Positions 5,426-36,264 of a DNA stretch of 64,000 nucleotides are shown piece by piece (position 1 is the first letter of the stretch; each line of letters starts with the position of its first letter). The stretch comes from Candidatus Microgenomatus sp. (GTDB lineage Bacteria > Patescibacteriota > Minisyncoccia > UBA6257 > GWB1-50-10): positions 239,157 to 303,156 of the forward strand of contig DYGI01000001.1 of assembly GCA_020724805.1 (NCBI GenBank), read 5' to 3'. The notes beneath the pieces are model-generated. The model ran no database searches and was not told the DNA's origin. It was given only the letters and a program-made list of their open reading frames with translations. The position numbers were made by a program, and so were the translations under genes.

Positions 5426-5911
5426 TCAATTGTCCATCGGGCGCCATGGTTTCTTTTTCAACGCGTGACGGACTTTCGTATCCCCGCTGTCTTTCGGGAC
5501 GGCGGAAACTTGTAGAGTCCGTGTCATGGGGGCGCTGACGTGCGTTTGTTCGCGCTTGATATCGCGTGATGCGGTATCGAGGGGAGCAGTAGTGCGCCGC
5601 GTTTCCTTCGACAGTTTCGTTGCGGCGGGTTTTTGGTGAACCACCAGTGAGACCCTTTTCTTTATGAGGTGGGGAATCGACGAGTGATCGACGTGCGGAC
5701 GAACGGCGGAGTCTGGTAATGGCGATGGTGAAATCGTCTTCTTCGGGGTTGTGGGCACCACGCGGGTGATTTTGGCGACGCCGTCTTCTTGTGCCTCAGG
5801 GCGCTCGAAGAAACACACGACACCTACGCCCATAAGGAGAACAAGAAGCGCGAGCGACATCCATATCAACCAGCGTTTTTTCTGCCCACTTCGTGGCTCT
5901 TTGGTTTTCAC
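5426..5911 (-). CDS. hypothetical membrane-anchored protein
   Basis: 161 aa. Single N-terminal TM (WLIWMSLALLVLLMGVGVVCFF), then low-complexity basic region. No recognisable domain. Confidence 0.4.
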   Translation of the reverse strand: MKTKEPRSGQKKRWLIWMSLALLVLLMGVGVVCFFERPEAQEDGVAKITRVVPTTPKKTISPSPLPDSAVRPHVDHSSIPHLIKKRVSLVVHQKPAATKLSKETRRTTAPLDTASRDIKREQTHVSAPMTRTLQVSAVPKDSGDTKVRHALKKKPWRPMDN

Positions 5912-6070
5912 AATATCACCTTCGTTTGTTTTAGTTATATGGGGTTATGCTGCGCGCACTATATCACCGTGCCTACATATTGACAAGATGGTGATGCCGT
6001 GGGATACATTGTGACAGTACTACCCTATAGGAAATCCTATATTTCACAACAACTAAAAGGAAAAATCGCC

Positions 6071-17606: not shown

Positions 17607-17738
17607 CGCATGGACCCCGTTAGAAGCAACTCAGCGACTCAATAATAGATAATGATATGCCTGTGAAATATTTAACCAACCGATTAAATCCGTGTAATAC
17701 GGGCGCGCACGTGGGCGCACCCTGCTTCTAACGGGATG
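17607..17738 (+). repeat. intercistronic structured element, copy A (diverged): SD + mini-ORF MDPVRSNSATQ + long-range stem + start codon of rpe
   Basis: CCCGTTAGAAGCA at 17617-17629 is the reverse complement of TGCTTCTAACGGG, which ends 1 nt before ATG 17736. Inner hairpin CCGTG-TAA-TACGG. Shares its architecture with copies at 31395 and 49511. Confidence 0.6.
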
Positions 17739-26785: not shown

Positions 26786-26812
26786 CGACTGGCAATTGCC
26801 AGTCGTATTTTT

Positions 26813-26814
<2 letters not shown>
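26786..26814 (+). terminator. perfect 20-nt palindrome plus T-run abutting the 16S 5' end (terminator-like or processing stem)
   Basis: CGACTGGCAATTGCCAGTCG followed by TATTTTTT. Lies between the rRNA promoter and the mature 16S start. Confidence 0.4.
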
Positions 26815-28301
<1,487 letters not shown>

Positions 28302-28509
28302 TAGTACACTTATCTTTTTCATTCCGAAGGGAGGGAGAAAGATAGCGAGCGAAAGATAGGAGGAGAGTGGAACGCGAACTCGTTTTTCGTTCCGCTCTCA
28401 GCCAGATCACGCGAATCCGTGAGGATTCAACAGGTGTTGGCCACTCAGCCTTAAGTTGGTGGCTCTAGGACAACGAAAAAAGTTTTTGGTGGTATACTGA
28501 AAATCAAAC

Positions 28510-31394: not shown

Positions 31395-31523
31395 GGATAT
31401 GAATCCCGTTAGCGGCAACTAATATCATGTTCATGTTTCACCGTATAAATCCAAAAAATCGTAATATAAAGGTCTCGTGGCACAACCACGGTCGCCTTGG
31501 GGCGACCTACCTCTAACGGGATG
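31395..31523 (+). repeat. intercistronic structured element, copy B (SD + mini-ORF MNPVSGN + two GC hairpins + start codon of pilC)
   Basis: AAGGAT-ATGAATCCCGTTAGCGGCAACTAA, then AAAGGTCTCGTGGCACAACCACGGTCGCCTTGGGGCGACCTACCTCTAACGGG-ATG. About 85% identical to copy C outside the central loop. Confidence 0.6.
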
Positions 31524-32729
31524 AAATATCGTTATATTGCATCACAGCAGGATGGACGCGTGGTTGAGGGAGACCTCGAGGCGCGTGATATGACCGAGGC
31601 GCTCGCCACTCTCGGGAAAAACCAATTAAAACCGGTGAGTTTGAAACCGCTCGAAGAAGCGGCCAAGCGGTCATTTGCGCTGTTCAGAGGGAAAATGACG
31701 TTGACTGATCTCGTGTTCATGTCGAAATACCTCTCGCTCATGTTGAAAGTGGGAACGGGACTTTTGGAAGCAATAAATATTCTCGTGGCTGACATCAAAA
31801 AGCCCGCGGTGCGCGACATTCTTCTTGAGATTCGCACTACCTTGGAGCAAGGTCAGCCGTTCTACACCACATTCGCGAAGTATCCGCGTGTTTTCGGGAG
31901 CGTGTATGCAAACCTCGTAAAAGCAGGAGAAGCATCGGGTGACCTTGAACATGTGTTTGAGGATCTCACCGAGGATCTCACCAAACAAAAAGACCTCAAG
32001 GACAGGGTGCGCGGCGCCTTGATATACCCAATTCTTCTTCTCATTGGGTCAGTGCTTATCCTCTCGTTTCTTGTGGGGTTCGCGCTCCCAAAGATCGCAG
32101 ACGTCTTTCTCCAAGGCGGATTCGAGCCTCCACTTTTCTCGCGCATCGTCTTTTCCGTCGGGCTTTTCTTCAGTGATTACGGGATCTATTTCCTAGGAAT
32201 TTTTCTTGTGCTGGTCGTGATGGTGTGGCGACTCTATATTGCGTCCCCATTCTTCAAGAAATTTATTTTAGGAATATTTGCCGAGATTCCCCTCATTCGT
32301 GATGTGGTGCAGAAGATCGCGCTCCAGCGATTTGCGTCTACCTTCTCCTCGCTTATCCGCGCGGGAATGCCCATTACCGACGCCTTGGAGATTACCGCAA
32401 CCGCGGCGGGGAATGTGGAACTTTCGGAGTCATTAATGCGCATTTCGCGCGAGGGTCTCATGAAAGGGCTCACCATCGGCGAGGCGTTCAAGCGCGAACC
32501 TTTCTTTCCGCAGACCGTCGCGAGCCTCATGTCCATCTCTGAAAAGGCGGGGCATTTAGATGAAGTGCTGGGAACTCTCTCCGATTTCTACGCCAAAGAA
32601 ATAGACGCGTCGGTAAAATCACTCGTGTCATTCTTGGAACCGCTTCTCCTCGTCTTGATTGGTGCGGTCATCGGCGTTATCGCGCTTGCCATTATTGTGC
32701 CTATCTATCAATTGACCACCCAGTTTTAA
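31521..32729 (+). CDS. pilC: type IV pilus inner-membrane platform protein PilC (GspF family)
   Basis: MKYRYIASQQDGRVVEGDLEA... typical PilC N-terminus. Two GspF repeats with TM helices. Confidence 0.9.
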   Translation: MKYRYIASQQDGRVVEGDLEARDMTEALATLGKNQLKPVSLKPLEEAAKRSFALFRGKMTLTDLVFMSKYLSLMLKVGTGLLEAINILVADIKKPAVRDILLEIRTTLEQGQPFYTTFAKYPRVFGSVYANLVKAGEASGDLEHVFEDLTEDLTKQKDLKDRVRGALIYPILLLIGSVLILSFLVGFALPKIADVFLQGGFEPPLFSRIVFSVGLFFSDYGIYFLGIFLVLVVMVWRLYIASPFFKKFILGIFAEIPLIRDVVQKIALQRFASTFSSLIRAGMPITDALEITATAAGNVELSESLMRISREGLMKGLTIGEAFKREPFFPQTVASLMSISEKAGHLDEVLGTLSDFYAKEIDASVKSLVSFLEPLLLVLIGAVIGVIALAIIVPIYQLTTQF

Positions 32730-32785
32730 AAAATTGATTCTTATTGAAACATTGAAAATTGAATCATTATGAAGATTGAAAGGTT
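32730..32785 (+). repeat. AT-rich TTGAAR-unit element R1
   Basis: aaaaattgattcttattgaaacattgaaaattgaatcatt runs into the ATG of the four-helix-bundle gene. Same unit family as R2-R5. Confidence 0.6.
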
Positions 32786-33152
32786 CGAAGATCTACCGAT
32801 ATGGAAAGATGCGCGCGTACTTATTCAAATAATCTACAAACTCTCAGCCCCATGGAAAGATTTTTCATTGCGAGACCAAGTAAGACGAGCGGCAGTTTCC
32901 GCGATTTCCAACATCTCTGAAGGGTTTGAGCGCGGTTCTAATCGGGAATTTATACAATTTCTCTATATTGCGAAAGGCTCATTAGGAGAACTTCGCGCGC
33001 AACTTTACGTTGCATATGATGTGCGAATGGTAGGTAAAGAAAATTTTGAAAAATGTCTCGCGCAATGCGAGGTAGTTTCAAGGGGCATCAGCCGTTTCGT
33101 GGGATATTTGAGAAAATCCCCACTTACCAAAGAAAGGCACAAATCCAGATGA
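32769..33152 (+). CDS. four-helix-bundle protein (23S rRNA IVS protein / Avd-like family)
   Basis: 127 aa. ...AISNISEGFERGSNREFIQFLYIAKGSLGELRAQLYVA matches the TIGR02436/PF05635 family. Confidence 0.75.
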   Translation: MKIERFEDLPIWKDARVLIQIIYKLSAPWKDFSLRDQVRRAAVSAISNISEGFERGSNREFIQFLYIAKGSLGELRAQLYVAYDVRMVGKENFEKCLAQCEVVSRGISRFVGYLRKSPLTKERHKSR

Positions 33153-34324
33153 ACAAGGAATCTTTCAATTCTTCAATGGTTCAATCGCGTGGCGCGCGAA
33201 GCGCGTTCACGCTCATAGAAATGTTGGTGGTGGTTGCACTCACCGTTGCTATTGCGACCGCAGGTTTTCTCGGCCTTTCGGGATATCGCAACAAGCAAGC
33301 GCTCGAATCGGGCCTCGATGAACTCCGCGCGGCGGTGGAGGCAACGAAGCGTCGTTCGGTAGCGCAGGAGGAAGGAAGCCGGTGGGGGATGCGGTTTACA
33401 AACGCGACTTCCGGCATTTCCTCATACTCTGTCTTTCAGGGAAGCTCATATTCCACGAGCGGTATCGACCGTACCTACTCGTTCCGTGACCCCGTGGGGT
33501 TCATGAATCCGTCCGCTTCATCCACCTACGATGTGGTGTTTGCCCCGCTCTCCGGAGCGCTCTCGGAAAATAAAGTGTTCACGCTCGGCGGGGGCTTAAA
33601 AGGTTTTATCGGAGACCTTATTCTTCGCACTATCGGGTCCATCACCGCGCGCACCGATCAAGACGTGGTGGGATATTGGCACTTGGATGAAGGAACGGGA
33701 ACCGCCGCCTACGACTCCTCTGGTTACGGAAATACCGGCACACTCACGAACGGTCCGACGTGGCAATCAGGGACGAGCTGTAGGGCGGGAGGATGTCTAA
33801 ATCTAAACGGTTCGACGCATTACATACAGTACGGGAACGTTTTGAATATGGGTCTTGATGACTGGACGATTTCTGCGTGGGTCAATACAACAGATTCCTC
33901 GCTGACTAATCGGTATTATTTGAGCAAATCAAGAGCGGCAGCGCAAAACTACCGCTACGGTTTATTTATTAGCTCGAGCACACAATCGGGAGGGATATTT
34001 ATGCAGGGGAATGGGGGTGCCGATGTGGCGGTGAGCGGGAATGTAGCCGTCAATAACGGCCAATGGCACCACTTAGTCTCCGTTTTTGACAGAGACAACA
34101 ACGCCTCACTCTACATTGATGGCGCTTTGAATGCGAGCGGAACTATTTCGCAATGGGCAAGCGCAAATATGGTATCAAACAACCCTTTTAGAATAGGGTC
34201 GTACACTGCGTCTGATAATACTACGCCAACGCTATTTTTCCCCGGATCGGTGGACGAATTTCGTGTCTGGAGCCGGGCGCTCTCCGCGAGCGAGATTGAA
34301 GCGCTCTATAATGACCTTAAGTAA
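33149..34324 (+). CDS. type IV pilin-like protein with C-terminal LamG (concanavalin-like lectin) domain
   Basis: RSAFTLIEMLVVVALTVAIATAG pilin-type N-terminus (A at -1). LamG hallmarks WHLDEGTGTAAYDSSGYGNTGT...VDEFRVWSRALSASEI. Confidence 0.7.
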   Translation: MNKESFNSSMVQSRGARSAFTLIEMLVVVALTVAIATAGFLGLSGYRNKQALESGLDELRAAVEATKRRSVAQEEGSRWGMRFTNATSGISSYSVFQGSSYSTSGIDRTYSFRDPVGFMNPSASSTYDVVFAPLSGALSENKVFTLGGGLKGFIGDLILRTIGSITARTDQDVVGYWHLDEGTGTAAYDSSGYGNTGTLTNGPTWQSGTSCRAGGCLNLNGSTHYIQYGNVLNMGLDDWTISAWVNTTDSSLTNRYYLSKSRAAAQNYRYGLFISSSTQSGGIFMQGNGGADVAVSGNVAVNNGQWHHLVSVFDRDNNASLYIDGALNASGTISQWASANMVSNNPFRIGSYTASDNTTPTLFFPGSVDEFRVWSRALSASEIEALYNDLK

Positions 34325-34400
34325 ATGAAATTGAAAATTAAAAAATTGAAAATTGAACGATTGAATAGCAAATTTTTCAATCTTTCAATCCTTCAATCAC
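34325..34400 (+). repeat. AT-rich TTGAAR-unit palindromic element R2 (overlaps annotated 5' end of next CDS)
   Basis: ATGAAATTGAAAATTAAAAAATTGAAAATTGAACGATTGAATAGCAAATTTTTCAATCTTTCAATCCTTCAATCAC. Imperfect palindrome of tandem subrepeats. Confidence 0.6.
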
Positions 34401-35695
34401 ATTCGCGCTCCGGTCAATCATTGGTAGAAGTCGTCATCGGGCTCGCCATTGGGGCGATACTCATGGGTACCGCGGCCTTTGCGGTGACCACCATGCTCAA
34501 AACCAACCTCACTTCGGAAAAGTCTCAATTCGCCTCACGGTTCGCGCAGGCGCTTGCGGACAATGTACGCTCCTATGCGGTGGGGAATTGGGATTCGCTC
34601 TACAGCCTTACCAAGGCCACGAGTTCACATTATTTTTTGAACGCGTCCGGCACCACATTCTTTGTGGTGGAAGGCGAAGAGGGGATGTGGGATGGGGACG
34701 TAACTAGCGGACTCGTGGGACAGTGGAAATTCGACGAAGTGGAGACCACGACCAGCACGACCACCTATGATGCAACAGGCAATAGAAACCATGGGACTCT
34801 CGGGGGTAGCCCTACGAGAAGCACATCAACATGCAAAATTTCCAATTGCCTCACTTTCAACGGATCTAGCAATGGTGTCAGTGTTTCCGATAGTGCCACT
34901 TTCGACTTCGGGGCCGGAGATTTTTCGGTGGCGGTTTGGGTTAATCCTGCGGGAGGAGGAACGGGAGATACCCAAGACATGCTTGTTTCCAAAACATCCT
35001 ATCCGAGCGGTTTTAACAATCGTGGCCCCGGTTTCTACCTTGGAAGAGCCAACGATAGTTATTGGTCATTCATGGTGGCCGACAGCCCGGATGTGGGAGG
35101 TAATAAAGTGAATACCGGACAGAATCCTTCAGGATGGTTTCATCTTGCGGGCATTTCGGAAGGAGGAGTTCTTAAAATGTATTTGAACGGCACGCTTATG
35201 AGCACCACTACAAGGACCGTGGGGTCGGTAGATAATAGCGTGAATCTTTATTTCGCATACCGTCCTAGTGCGTGGTATTTCGGAGGAAGTTTGGACGACG
35301 TTCGTCTTTATAACCGTGCGCTCTCCGCAGATGAAGTTCGCCAACTTTGGAACTCGGGAGTGTATGAGCGTTTCTTTACCATTGAAAATGTGTGTCGCAC
35401 GAACGATGCCTCGAGCACTATCGCTTCAACCGCACCGTGCAGCGGAACACTCGAAGACGGTTCAACCCAATGGATTACGAGCTATACGCAGTGGGTCACG
35501 GGTGCGGGAACGAACGAAGTGACGATTCCTTCCATCATTGCGCGGTGGCAAAATGCGGTATTTCACCAGAGCGACTGGTCGGGAGGCGCGGCGAGCGAAG
35601 GCGCGGTCGTAGAGCCTACCAACAAGTTCTCAAGTTCCACGAATGCTTCGACGACCGGCGGGGTCATACAGATACAGAATCTCTCACAGCAATAA
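34325..35695 (+). CDS. type IV pilin-like protein with LamG domain (second paralog; true start uncertain)
   Basis: Cleavage-type motif SGQSLVEVVIGLAIGAILMG (G-1, E+5). LamG motifs WKFDE...GNRNHGTL...LDDVRLYNRALSADEV. The first 25 codons are encoded by repeat R2. A TTG start near 34363 is possible. Confidence 0.65.
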   Translation: MKLKIKKLKIERLNSKFFNLSILQSHSRSGQSLVEVVIGLAIGAILMGTAAFAVTTMLKTNLTSEKSQFASRFAQALADNVRSYAVGNWDSLYSLTKATSSHYFLNASGTTFFVVEGEEGMWDGDVTSGLVGQWKFDEVETTTSTTTYDATGNRNHGTLGGSPTRSTSTCKISNCLTFNGSSNGVSVSDSATFDFGAGDFSVAVWVNPAGGGTGDTQDMLVSKTSYPSGFNNRGPGFYLGRANDSYWSFMVADSPDVGGNKVNTGQNPSGWFHLAGISEGGVLKMYLNGTLMSTTTRTVGSVDNSVNLYFAYRPSAWYFGGSLDDVRLYNRALSADEVRQLWNSGVYERFFTIENVCRTNDASSTIASTAPCSGTLEDGSTQWITSYTQWVTGAGTNEVTIPSIIARWQNAVFHQSDWSGGAASEGAVVEPTNKFSSSTNASTTGGVIQIQNLSQQ

Positions 35696-35700
35696 AGAGG

Positions 35701-35780
35701 TTATTGAAGAATTGAGAGATTAAAGAATTGAAGAATTAGGAGATTAATAAAGAATTTTTCAATCTTTCAATTTTCAATAC
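35701..35780 (+). repeat. AT-rich TTGAAR-unit palindromic element R3
   Basis: attgaagaattgagagattaaagaattgaagaatt ... aatttttcaatctttcaattttcaat. Left and right halves are reverse complements. Confidence 0.6.
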
Positions 35781-35805
35781 CCATCTATAGGTTTATACTT
35801 TACTT

Positions 35806-36207
35806 ATGGCAACGATAAGGAACTTCCATGAAAAGTTAGAACAAGATCTCCAACGGGTAACCGCGGAGATCGAGCGCCGCAGGGAACGCGCACCCGAAAT
35901 CGCATCACGCGAAGTGGTGAGGCAGTCCATTATTGCGGCAATACCTCAAGCACCTGTTTCGGAGAGGGTCGAGGCCTCTCCCTCTGGTTCTTCACCGGCC
36001 GCGCCGGAGCGAATTCCCGCATATCTTAATGAGGAATCTCCTGAAATAAAGGCGGAGGTGGAACGACTCGTATCGCTGGCGTTCGAGAAGGGCATTTCAT
36101 CGGCAGTGGAAGAGGCGGCAAAAAAGTCCCCGTTCGTACTTGATGCGTTCCACGATGCGCTTGCGGATAAACTTCTGCCGGAATTGGAGAAAAGAGGAAT
36201 AATTTAA
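35806..36207 (+). CDS. hypothetical protein (133 aa, predicted helical)
   Basis: ORF between R3 and R4. Charged, helical composition. No motif recognised. Confidence 0.45.
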   Translation: MATIRNFHEKLEQDLQRVTAEIERRRERAPEIASREVVRQSIIAAIPQAPVSERVEASPSGSSPAAPERIPAYLNEESPEIKAEVERLVSLAFEKGISSAVEEAAKKSPFVLDAFHDALADKLLPELEKRGII

Positions 36208-36264
36208 AAATTGAAGAATTGAAGCATTGAATGATTAATTTTTCAATTTTCAATTTTCAATTTA
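36208..36264 (+). repeat. AT-rich TTGAAR-unit palindromic element R4
   Basis: aaaaattgaagaattgaagcattgaatgattaatttttcaattttcaattttcaattt, ending 4 nt before ATG 36269. Confidence 0.6.

Follow-up and report, generated by a model that had tools for sequence, protein, structure and literature searches.

Intervening sequences (IVSs) interrupt the 23S rRNA genes of bacteria such as Leptospira and Coxiella burnetii, and those with an open reading frame (ORF) of the S23p/IVP family are known so far in rRNA genes only. The Coxiella IVS has a size of 428-444 nt, is closed by a 28-bp terminal stem, carries an ORF of the same family in sense orientation, is excised by RNase III, and has long been suspected to be mobile (PMC4990558). 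Here, we analysed a stretch of 64,000 nt from Candidatus Microgenomatus sp. (contig DYGI01000001.1), hereafter the window, or W where lineages are compared. It contains five palindromic elements, E1-E5 (R1-R5 of the original prediction, which had been made from the letters of this stretch), and E1 encloses a 127-aa gene of this family, for which, as for its product, we use the name IVP. We consider it likely that the five represent a mobile family of IVS-like cassettes, together with derivatives resembling miniature inverted-repeat transposable elements (MITEs) or REPINs (hairpin-forming doublets of repetitive extragenic palindromes, REPs), inserted between stop and start codons.

Further described systems share parts of this design. 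In REPIN/RAYT systems (RAYT, REP-associated tyrosine transposase), one protein gene is flanked by inverted short repeats, and the same repeat recurs as gene-less intergenic palindromes. Rickettsia palindromic elements (RPEs) are palindromic insertions that are tolerated within coding sequence and translated in frame, and both the RNase III sites between the early genes of phage T7 and the mRNA-stabilising REP hairpins place long stems between cistrons of one transcript. Geobacter metallireducens, finally, possesses three classes (1-3) of paired repeats, each pair consisting of 3-5 tandem 7-9-nt repeats on opposite strands and occurring in many copies between operon genes such as nifD-nifK and proB-proA, with several unit families in one genome; these were described as putative sites for IHF/HU or a global regulator, and a link to IVP was not made (PMC2700814).

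With the 23S rRNA IVSs, E1 has in common its size (0.4-0.5 kb), an inverted-repeat stem of about 27-28 bp, a PF05635 ORF in the loop, placed on the sense strand of the host transcript, and a sporadic occurrence among relatives. Unlike these IVSs, it is located between protein-coding genes, its arms consist of tandem 7-9-nt units, and gene-less copies occupy other junctions. REPIN/RAYT systems and MITEs are resembled in the flanked single gene, the gene-less palindromes and a repeat type that follows the protein lineage, but IVP is a four-helix bundle in which no HUH or tyrosine transposase motif is known, each arm is itself a tandem array, and the copies stand exactly at stop/start junctions in operons and have no detectable target-site duplication. 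As with RPEs, a palindromic insertion is translated within a host protein, here in pilin leader peptides; in contrast to RPEs, the translated stretch belongs to a leader that is removed by cleavage, and the family has a gene-bearing member. The likeness to T7 RNase III sites and REP hairpins is one of possible working and not of membership; the stems described here are AU-rich and repeat-built. The Geobacter sites match E1-E5 by description only, their units (GTTGCTYN, TCTCCGTS, MTYCTGA) being unrelated in sequence.

A gene enclosed by a split palindrome

The genes concerned are all on the + strand, in the order pilB, pilC, IVP, two LamG-domain pilin genes, a 133-aa gene, a VirB4/TraG-like ATPase gene and TIM. 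E5 is located elsewhere in the window, after rpsF-ssb-rpsR and before a PAP2 phosphatase gene. The elements and the enclosed gene have the following window positions:

32731-32786, + strand: left arm of E1, four ATTGAA units, beginning 2 nt past the pilC stop codon (32727-32729)
32769-33152, + strand: IVP gene, encoding a 127-aa four-helix-bundle protein (PF05635 23S_rRNA_IVP, TIGR02436)
33158-33188, + strand: right arm of E1, three TTCAAT units pairing with 32758-32786, translated within the pilin-1 leader
34325-34400, + strand: E2, gene-less palindrome at the pilin 1/pilin 2 junction, of which at least the right arm is translated in the pilin-2 leader
35699-35782, + strand: E3, gene-less palindrome at the junction of pilin 2 and the 133-aa gene, just 5' of a conserved TATACT/TATAAT box
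36208-36263, + strand: E4, gene-less palindrome at the junction of the 133-aa gene with the VirB4/TraG-like ATPase gene
50329-50374, + strand: E5, gene-less palindrome after rpsR (50113-50325, encoding ribosomal protein S18) and before the PAP2 phosphatase gene (50388-50915)

R1 (32730-32785) had been predicted to be a long imperfect palindrome by itself. It holds direct units only, and the reverse-complement units were found 380 nt downstream, at 33158-33188. The loop between the two arms is occupied by the 384-nt IVP ORF, an enclosure that the original prediction had missed, and the left arm includes the IVP start codon (32769). The minimum-energy fold of 32725-33200 pairs 32758-32786 with 33158-33185, and an inverted-repeat finder recovers the same arms in the window and likewise inverted repeats in the related lineage L129. 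E1 thus carries a gene in the loop of its palindrome, and E2-E5 repeat this palindrome in gene-less form, built from 2-4 ATTGAANN units, an AT loop and the reverse-complement units. The predicted succession of subrepeats, AT core and reverse complement therefore stands for R2-R5 but not for R1, which is a left arm only, and the unit period was measured as about 8 nt instead of 9-10 bp. That all five end within 0-15 nt of a start codon does not apply to R3, which ends about 23 nt before the next ATG. On the other side, the distance from the upstream stop codon to the start of the element is 0-8 nt for every element in the window, and the insertions share the orientation of the host operon, placed exactly between an upstream stop codon and the following gene start. 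The stem of E1 measures 27 bp and those of E2-E5 17-30 bp; they are AU-rich and have almost no G-C pairs.

The window thus contains five copies with common terminal inverted repeats. The window has 15 matches to the pattern TTCAATN{1,3}TTCAAT, all of them inside elements, where 100 shuffles predict 0.02, and clusters of at least three TTGAA/TTCAA words number six in the 64 kb, all belonging to the named elements, in agreement with the prediction that these stand out from their surroundings. By word count, the clusters comprise:

32744-32780: four TTGAA
33164-33184: three TTCAA
34331-34396: four TTGAA, three TTCAA
35758-35777: three TTCAA, after a degenerate TTGAA arm
36211-36260: three TTGAA, three TTCAA
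50330-50373: three TTGAA, two TTCAA

Folding, which had been proposed as a check, gave more stable structures for E2-E5 than for shuffled sequences on both strands (z -2.0 to -5.0). The 3.8-kb element region is identical in six independent assemblies (JGI, NCBI, Logan; one with a run of N), so it is not an assembly artefact, and the metagenome contig of 570,864 bp to which the window belongs also occurs in GCA_020725245.1. Because word counts, folds compared with shuffles and six identical assemblies agree, the elements are real and non-random. Nine gene-less copies out of four lineages fit one consensus alignment, in which RNAalifold found no covariation because the sequence itself is conserved. 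Rfam, at gathering thresholds on the window and 20 loci, gave no match on any arm and holds no family for these cassette arms, and PADLOC gave no match.

Hairpins of this kind could act as intrinsic transcription terminators or, as had been suggested, attenuators between genes. They do lie directly past stop codons, and a T-rich stretch follows E4, but the 9 terminator-like sites equal the shuffled expectation (9.0), none of the nine is inside an element, the AU-rich stems almost lack G-C pairs, and the co-directional ATPase, TIM, FtsW and rpoB/C genes follow without obvious promoters. We regard this explanation as very unlikely.

The enclosed protein, previously termed Avd-like, matches Pfam PF05635 (23S_rRNA_IVP; E = 3.6e-30), TIGR02436 and the solved structure 2GSC (E = 4.6e-14). 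An identity as the accessory protein Avd of a diversity-generating retroelement (DGR) was rejected, since the genes called up to 10 kb to each side of the elements gave no match to a reverse-transcriptase Pfam family and since viral contigs almost lack this IVP subfamily (1 weak match). In the window, Rfam detected only a 16S rRNA gene and tRNAs; E1 is located between pilC and a pilin gene and not in a 23S rRNA helix.

Where a right arm enters a pilin gene, it is read as protein. Pilin 1 has possible ATG starts at 33149 and 33176, from which the right arm of E1 is read as leader, and the claim that R2 starts with the ATG after the pilin-1 stop codon, making the annotated N-terminus of pilin 2 translated repeat, is borne out by the short leader of the element-free lineage L130. 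There, the two prepilin leaders read MRRGG/FTLIE and MKYGNRNG/QSLVEV; the long annotated leaders of the window are thus translation products of the right arms, with one reading frame common to both pilins. Consequently, the pilin N-termini of the window are annotated too long, repeat DNA being read as protein.

Occupied and empty junctions in related operons

Syntenic operons were compared across eight related lineages (L numbers denote fetched loci or lineages, g127 and g129 genomes). The PilC relatives carry the names Candidatus Brennerbacteria or Jorgensenbacteria, of the Candidate Phyla Radiation (CPR)/Patescibacteria. The gene between pilin 2 and the ATPase is called hyp below, and the lineages are ordered by presence of IVP at the pilC-pilin junction, with their PilC identity to W:

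L129 (85%): IVP present; TTGAA palindromes at the three other junctions of W
L211 (67%): IVP present; TTGAA palindromes, one additionally at pilB-pilC
L212/L213 (65%): IVP present; TTGAA palindromes at pilin 1-pilin 2 and pilin 2-hyp
L214 (91%, the closest): IVP absent; no TTGAA palindromes
L127 (87%): IVP absent; no TTGAA palindromes
L128 (87%): IVP absent; no TTGAA palindromes
L130 (83%): IVP absent; no TTGAA palindromes

The comparison for presence and absence that the original prediction had proposed thus found the junctions filled in four lineages, W included, and empty in four others, among them the closest relative. In the element-free lineages, pilC and pilin 1 overlap by TAATG or TGATG, or lie 2 nt apart in L214. 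In L130, furthermore, pilin 1 and pilin 2 overlap by ATGA, the pilin 2-hyp spacer is 18 nt long (GGGTATAATGAAAGTGTT) and the hyp-ATPase spacer 6 nt. Lineages with IVP at the locus have 21 TTGAA/TTCAA clusters in about 115 kb of sequence, and those without it have 0 in about 75 kb. The E5 junction (S18-PAP2) has a 3-nt spacer in g127 and a 79-nt insert made of another unit family (GGAGTTTGG) in g129. With the elements missing from the same junctions of close relatives that keep the operon, the MITE family that had been listed among the possible roles gained support.

W shares higher identities with g127, where the elements are absent (RpoB 92.3%, RpoC 89.5%, ATPase 81%, FtsW 82%), than with g129, where they are present (RpoB 87.7%, RpoC 84.7%, ATPase 74%, FtsW 71%), and among the four carriers the IVP identities are star-like (68-77%) and do not track those of PilC (64-85%). 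Judged by these identities, the distribution of the elements does not follow phylogeny, so that they must have been either lost completely or gained at the same junctions more than once.

The same operons bear on a resemblance to integrons, in which the elements would be attC-like sites delimiting exchangeable gene cassettes. Imperfect palindromes at successive boundaries of a co-directional gene array would fit such an arrangement, but the intervening genes keep the same order in relatives without palindromes, and no integrase family was matched among the genes called in the surrounding 20 kb. Moreover, attC core sites are unlike tandem ATTGAA units, a comparison for which no direct scan for such sites was made. 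The proposed series of cassettes separated by palindromes consists instead of syntenic core genes, the only cassette-like gene among them being the one formerly called Avd-like; of all explanations considered, we give this one the least credence.

IVP cassettes in other genomes and the evidence for movement

We aligned 35 IVP homologues and retrieved 80 metagenome loci with relatives at 45-57% identity. An inverted-arm score, obtained by aligning the upstream 150 nt to the reverse complement of the downstream 150 nt, was computed for those 69 loci whose flanks reached at least 100 nt on both sides and compared with 753 pseudo-genes placed randomly in the same loci. Its median was 43 at the IVP loci, against a background mean of 17 (95th percentile 22, 99th percentile 25.5), and 91% of the IVP loci exceeded the 95th and 86% the 99th background percentile. 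The arms have a median length of 34 nt and consist of 3-10 tandem units, with unit lengths of 7 nt (36 loci), 8 nt (10 loci) and 9 nt (8 loci). The unit varies by locus (GTCCAAAG, GTTCAAGG, GGTTGCA, AGTTCCAG and others), with the two arms always mutually complementary, and an IVP locus from Ignavibacteria has the same design with GAGTT units. Enclosure of IVP by a tandem-repeat palindrome is hence general among these loci. An Rfam scan detected no 23S rRNA gene in 19 metagenome IVP loci and L129, and the neighbours are ordinary genes, for instance lexA, an imuA-like gene, phoU and a GH20 hydrolase gene. The upstream neighbour is co-directional with IVP in 33 of 41 cases; the left arm starts at a median of 1 nt past the upstream stop codon, and the right arm ends at a median of 3 nt beyond the first possible downstream start.

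In four of the metagenome loci (L143, L168, L205, L132), the cassette is located directly 3' of lexA, and in L168 and L205 the gene after it is RecA/ImuA-like, so that from synteny the lexA-imuA junction looks like another recurrent cassette site.

Gene-less copies also accompany cassettes among the metagenome loci: L168 and L203 each contain a complete gene-less palindrome of the cassette's own unit one gene away, and L143 and L147 single clusters of the unit word nearby. The arm unit changes together with the protein, as the 6-mer similarity of arms has a cosine of 0.72 at IVP identities of at least 75% and of 0.04 below 55% (Spearman p = 6e-53). TTCAAT-array loci in other phyla had an IVP gene within 8 kb in 3 of 120 cases among the matches listed; the word itself is therefore not diagnostic.

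Tandem arrays of (ATTTTCA)n, (AATGTTC)n and (AATCTTC)n occur in the intergenic DNA of many phyla (loci L007-L126), comprising Bacteroidota, Thermoanaerobaculia, Ignavibacteria, Deltaproteobacteria, Chloroflexi, Cyanobacteria and CPR, and often adjoin arrays of other heptamers. By a word-count criterion, TTGAA words stand beside a TTCAA array at 24 of 129 sites among the matches listed, consistent with palindromes. Many IVP genes were found on contigs shorter than 2 kb, suggesting that palindromes of the IVP type may break metagenome assemblies.

One near-identical cassette pair stands in unrelated contexts: the IVPs of L157 and L170 are 88% identical and their flanks are non-homologous on both sides, the DNA homology starting with base 1 of the left arm, which directly follows a stop codon in both, and ending with the last base of the right arm. 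Other similar IVPs in unrelated contexts are those of L143 and L169 (80%), L163 and L170 (75%), and L148 and L179 (75%).

Several observations weigh against a mobile cassette family. The phyletic pattern can also arise by vertical descent with repeated precise loss, the 72% identity between the IVPs of W and L129 would not be unusual for proteins inherited vertically, and the insert of other units at the E5 junction of g129 indicates that occupancy and element family are not strictly linked. The L157/L170 pair fits equally with arms and gene moving together or with a gene moving between pre-existing palindromes. No target-site duplication was detectable around 46 cassettes, the longest shared flank word averaging 3.26 nt, equal to the control; no transposase or recombinase family was matched by a gene called in the 20 kb surrounding the elements, and we know of no catalytic activity or motif for IVP. 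As for a function in RNA, sense-strand G-U pairs exceed A-C mismatches modestly (72 vs 45 in 53 cassettes, p = 0.016) and E2-E5, folded on both strands, have no consistent strand preference, so that selection for RNA structure is not established. Lastly, an approximate query with E. coli RNase III found no rnc gene in the window, which covers about 11% of the genome, a result that carries no information either way.

Some of these points would suit hairpins that arose in place, by slippage or template switching, and were kept as punctuation that processes or stabilises RNA and sets the ratio of pilin to assembly proteins, with no mobility involved. Different hairpins do occur at the same junction between lineages (three kinds at pilB-pilC; at S18-PAP2, TTGAA units in W and GGAGTTTGG units in g129), the genes followed by an element (pilC, both pilin genes and rpsR) could plausibly be expressed unevenly within their operons, and the weak G-U bias is on the sense strand. 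However, one unit is common to five sites in W and to nine aligned copies of four lineages, four related lineages have none of these hairpins, and the homology boundaries of L157/L170 point to a discrete inserted unit. We therefore think an origin in place improbable.

Constraint on the cassettes is strong. The dN/dS ratio (nonsynonymous to synonymous changes) of IVP is 0.07-0.09, indicating strong purifying selection, with 0.09 for the copies of W and L129, and the ATTGAA unit is still retained among W, L129, L211 and L212, whose synonymous sites are saturated (proportion of synonymous differences, pS, 0.69-0.83). Conservation of the arm sequence beyond what pairing needs, together with arms that diverge less than synonymous sites between L157 and L170, speaks for operator or iteron arrays bound by an IVP pentamer, IHF/HU or the partner of the REC-domain protein, which would be regulatory sites of the host and not mobile. 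Such sites would also agree with the covariation of arm units with IVP lineage and the co-occurrence of IVP and palindromes, and similar paired tandem repeats of G. metallireducens were taken as global-regulator sites by their authors (PMC2700814). On the other hand, the closest relatives keep the operon and the same REC gene without any such sites, the elements begin at stop codons and fill the space between cistrons instead of lying at promoters, the unit period of 7-9 nt is not the helical repeat, promoter-like sites are fewer than in shuffles (3 vs 5.7), and the cassette pair in unrelated contexts indicates insertion. The promoter scan of the elements gave one site of note, TTTTCA-17-TATACT at E3. 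The promoters or operators for a shared regulator that had been put forward are thus not supported by the relatives or the scan, and we hold such host sites to be unlikely, if slightly less so than an origin in place.

Under the preferred explanation of a mobile cassette family, E1-E5 would be copies of one inserted palindromic family of ATTGAANN units, with E1 as the full-length copy that bears the IVP four-helix-bundle gene between its two arms and E2-E5 as gene-less versions with adjacent arms, comparable to MITEs or REPINs. Since E1 resembles the Coxiella IVS in size, stem, ORF family and orientation, we infer that the elements would be co-transcribed with the operon and that their long AU-rich stems would be cut by RNase III, as has been demonstrated for excision of the rRNA IVSs. 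Such cutting would separate the cistrons, so that insertion at stop/start junctions could be tolerated, and a right arm entering a pilin gene would be translated into a leader peptide that is cleaved off the mature pilin. By analogy with REPIN/RAYT systems, the candidate mover would be the product of the flanked gene, the IVP protein, which is the sole candidate always present.

A broader proposal, for which we have only tentative confidence, is that IVP proteins are the dedicated trans-acting partners of a large and so far unrecognised class of mobile elements. Each IVP lineage would recognise a 7-9-nt unit of its own, would spread or maintain palindromes of this unit at stop/start junctions, and would travel inside one of them; rRNA IVSs, operon cassettes and the Geobacter sites would form one superfamily tolerated through RNase III. 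In the literature, our coverage of which is incomplete so that earlier work may exist, we found no description of IVP cassettes outside rRNA genes or in operons, or of their tandem-repeat arms. The origin and spread of rRNA IVSs have been questioned since about 1990, and our data suggest that they are one case of a wider type of operon-inserting cassette. Furthermore, the orphan family PF05635/TIGR02436, related to Avd, gains a testable setting, namely the binding or moving of its own tandem-repeat arms, and the Geobacter paired tandem repeats, which were noted without explanation, may be accounted for. Transposase genes of IS110 (ISGme8) and IS481 (ISGme9) adjoin many Geobacter class 1 octanucleotide sites at a fixed distance (PMC2700814), and paired-repeat palindromes may thus double as landing sites for other mobile elements.

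Other intercistronic elements and neighbouring features

Palindromes of other units (CTAAATCC / GGATTTAG, GGAGTTTGG) are present in g129 at pilB-pilC (169 nt), ATPase-TIM (73 nt) and S18-PAP2 (79 nt), so that one genome holds several unit families. They are located at:

L129, 9832-10000 and 17113-17185
L215, 9922-10000

A second intercistronic element family occurs in the window at 17607-17735 and 31395-31520 (126-129 nt) and in L127 (9890-10000) and L128 (9874-10000), where it measures 111-127 nt. Its ends, CCCGTTAGnnGC...GCnnCTAACGGG, form a long-range stem abutting the next ATG, with compensatory changes in L127 (CCCGTTCGAAAT...ATTTCGAGCGGG); L130 lacks the element, and a different palindrome occupies the site in L129. 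The element-free lineages, in addition, carry a 134-141-aa helix-turn-helix (HTH) gene, with a weak Trp_repressor match, between the two pilin genes, and near-perfect palindromes (GCGCTATGCTATAGCATAGCGC) stand on both sides of this insert:

L127, 12358-12957
L214, 2431-3070

Even a bacterial genome of about 0.57 Mb thus harbours several families of intercistronic insertions.

Two further features of the pilus operon were observed. All lineages, whether E3 is present or not, have a conserved -10-like box (TATAAT/TATACT) that precedes the ATG start of the 133-aa gene by 6-9 nt. This points to a possible internal promoter, with an mRNA that is leaderless or has a very short leader. The sites are:

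window, 35788-35805
L130, 6536-6553
L214, 4322-4336
L127, 14233-14262
L129, 14225-14252

At the end of pilC, the last 9-11 nt pair perfectly with the bases just past the stop codon, which itself lies in the loop. Between L129/L211 and L212, two positions of this hairpin are changed on both sides; it is weaker in W and absent in the element-free relatives. A hairpin around the upstream stop codon was also tested at other IVP cassettes and is not general, being confined to the pilC junction of L129, L211 and L212. Its positions are:

L129, 11196-11221
L211, 2874-2895
L212, 7945-7966
window, 32721-32736

Finally, the 16S rRNA gene at window 26808-28310 is solitary, with no 23S gene within the window. 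Where the window and L129 have this gene, L127 has by synteny a LAGLIDADG endonuclease ORF (5540-5968), which could be part of an rRNA intron.

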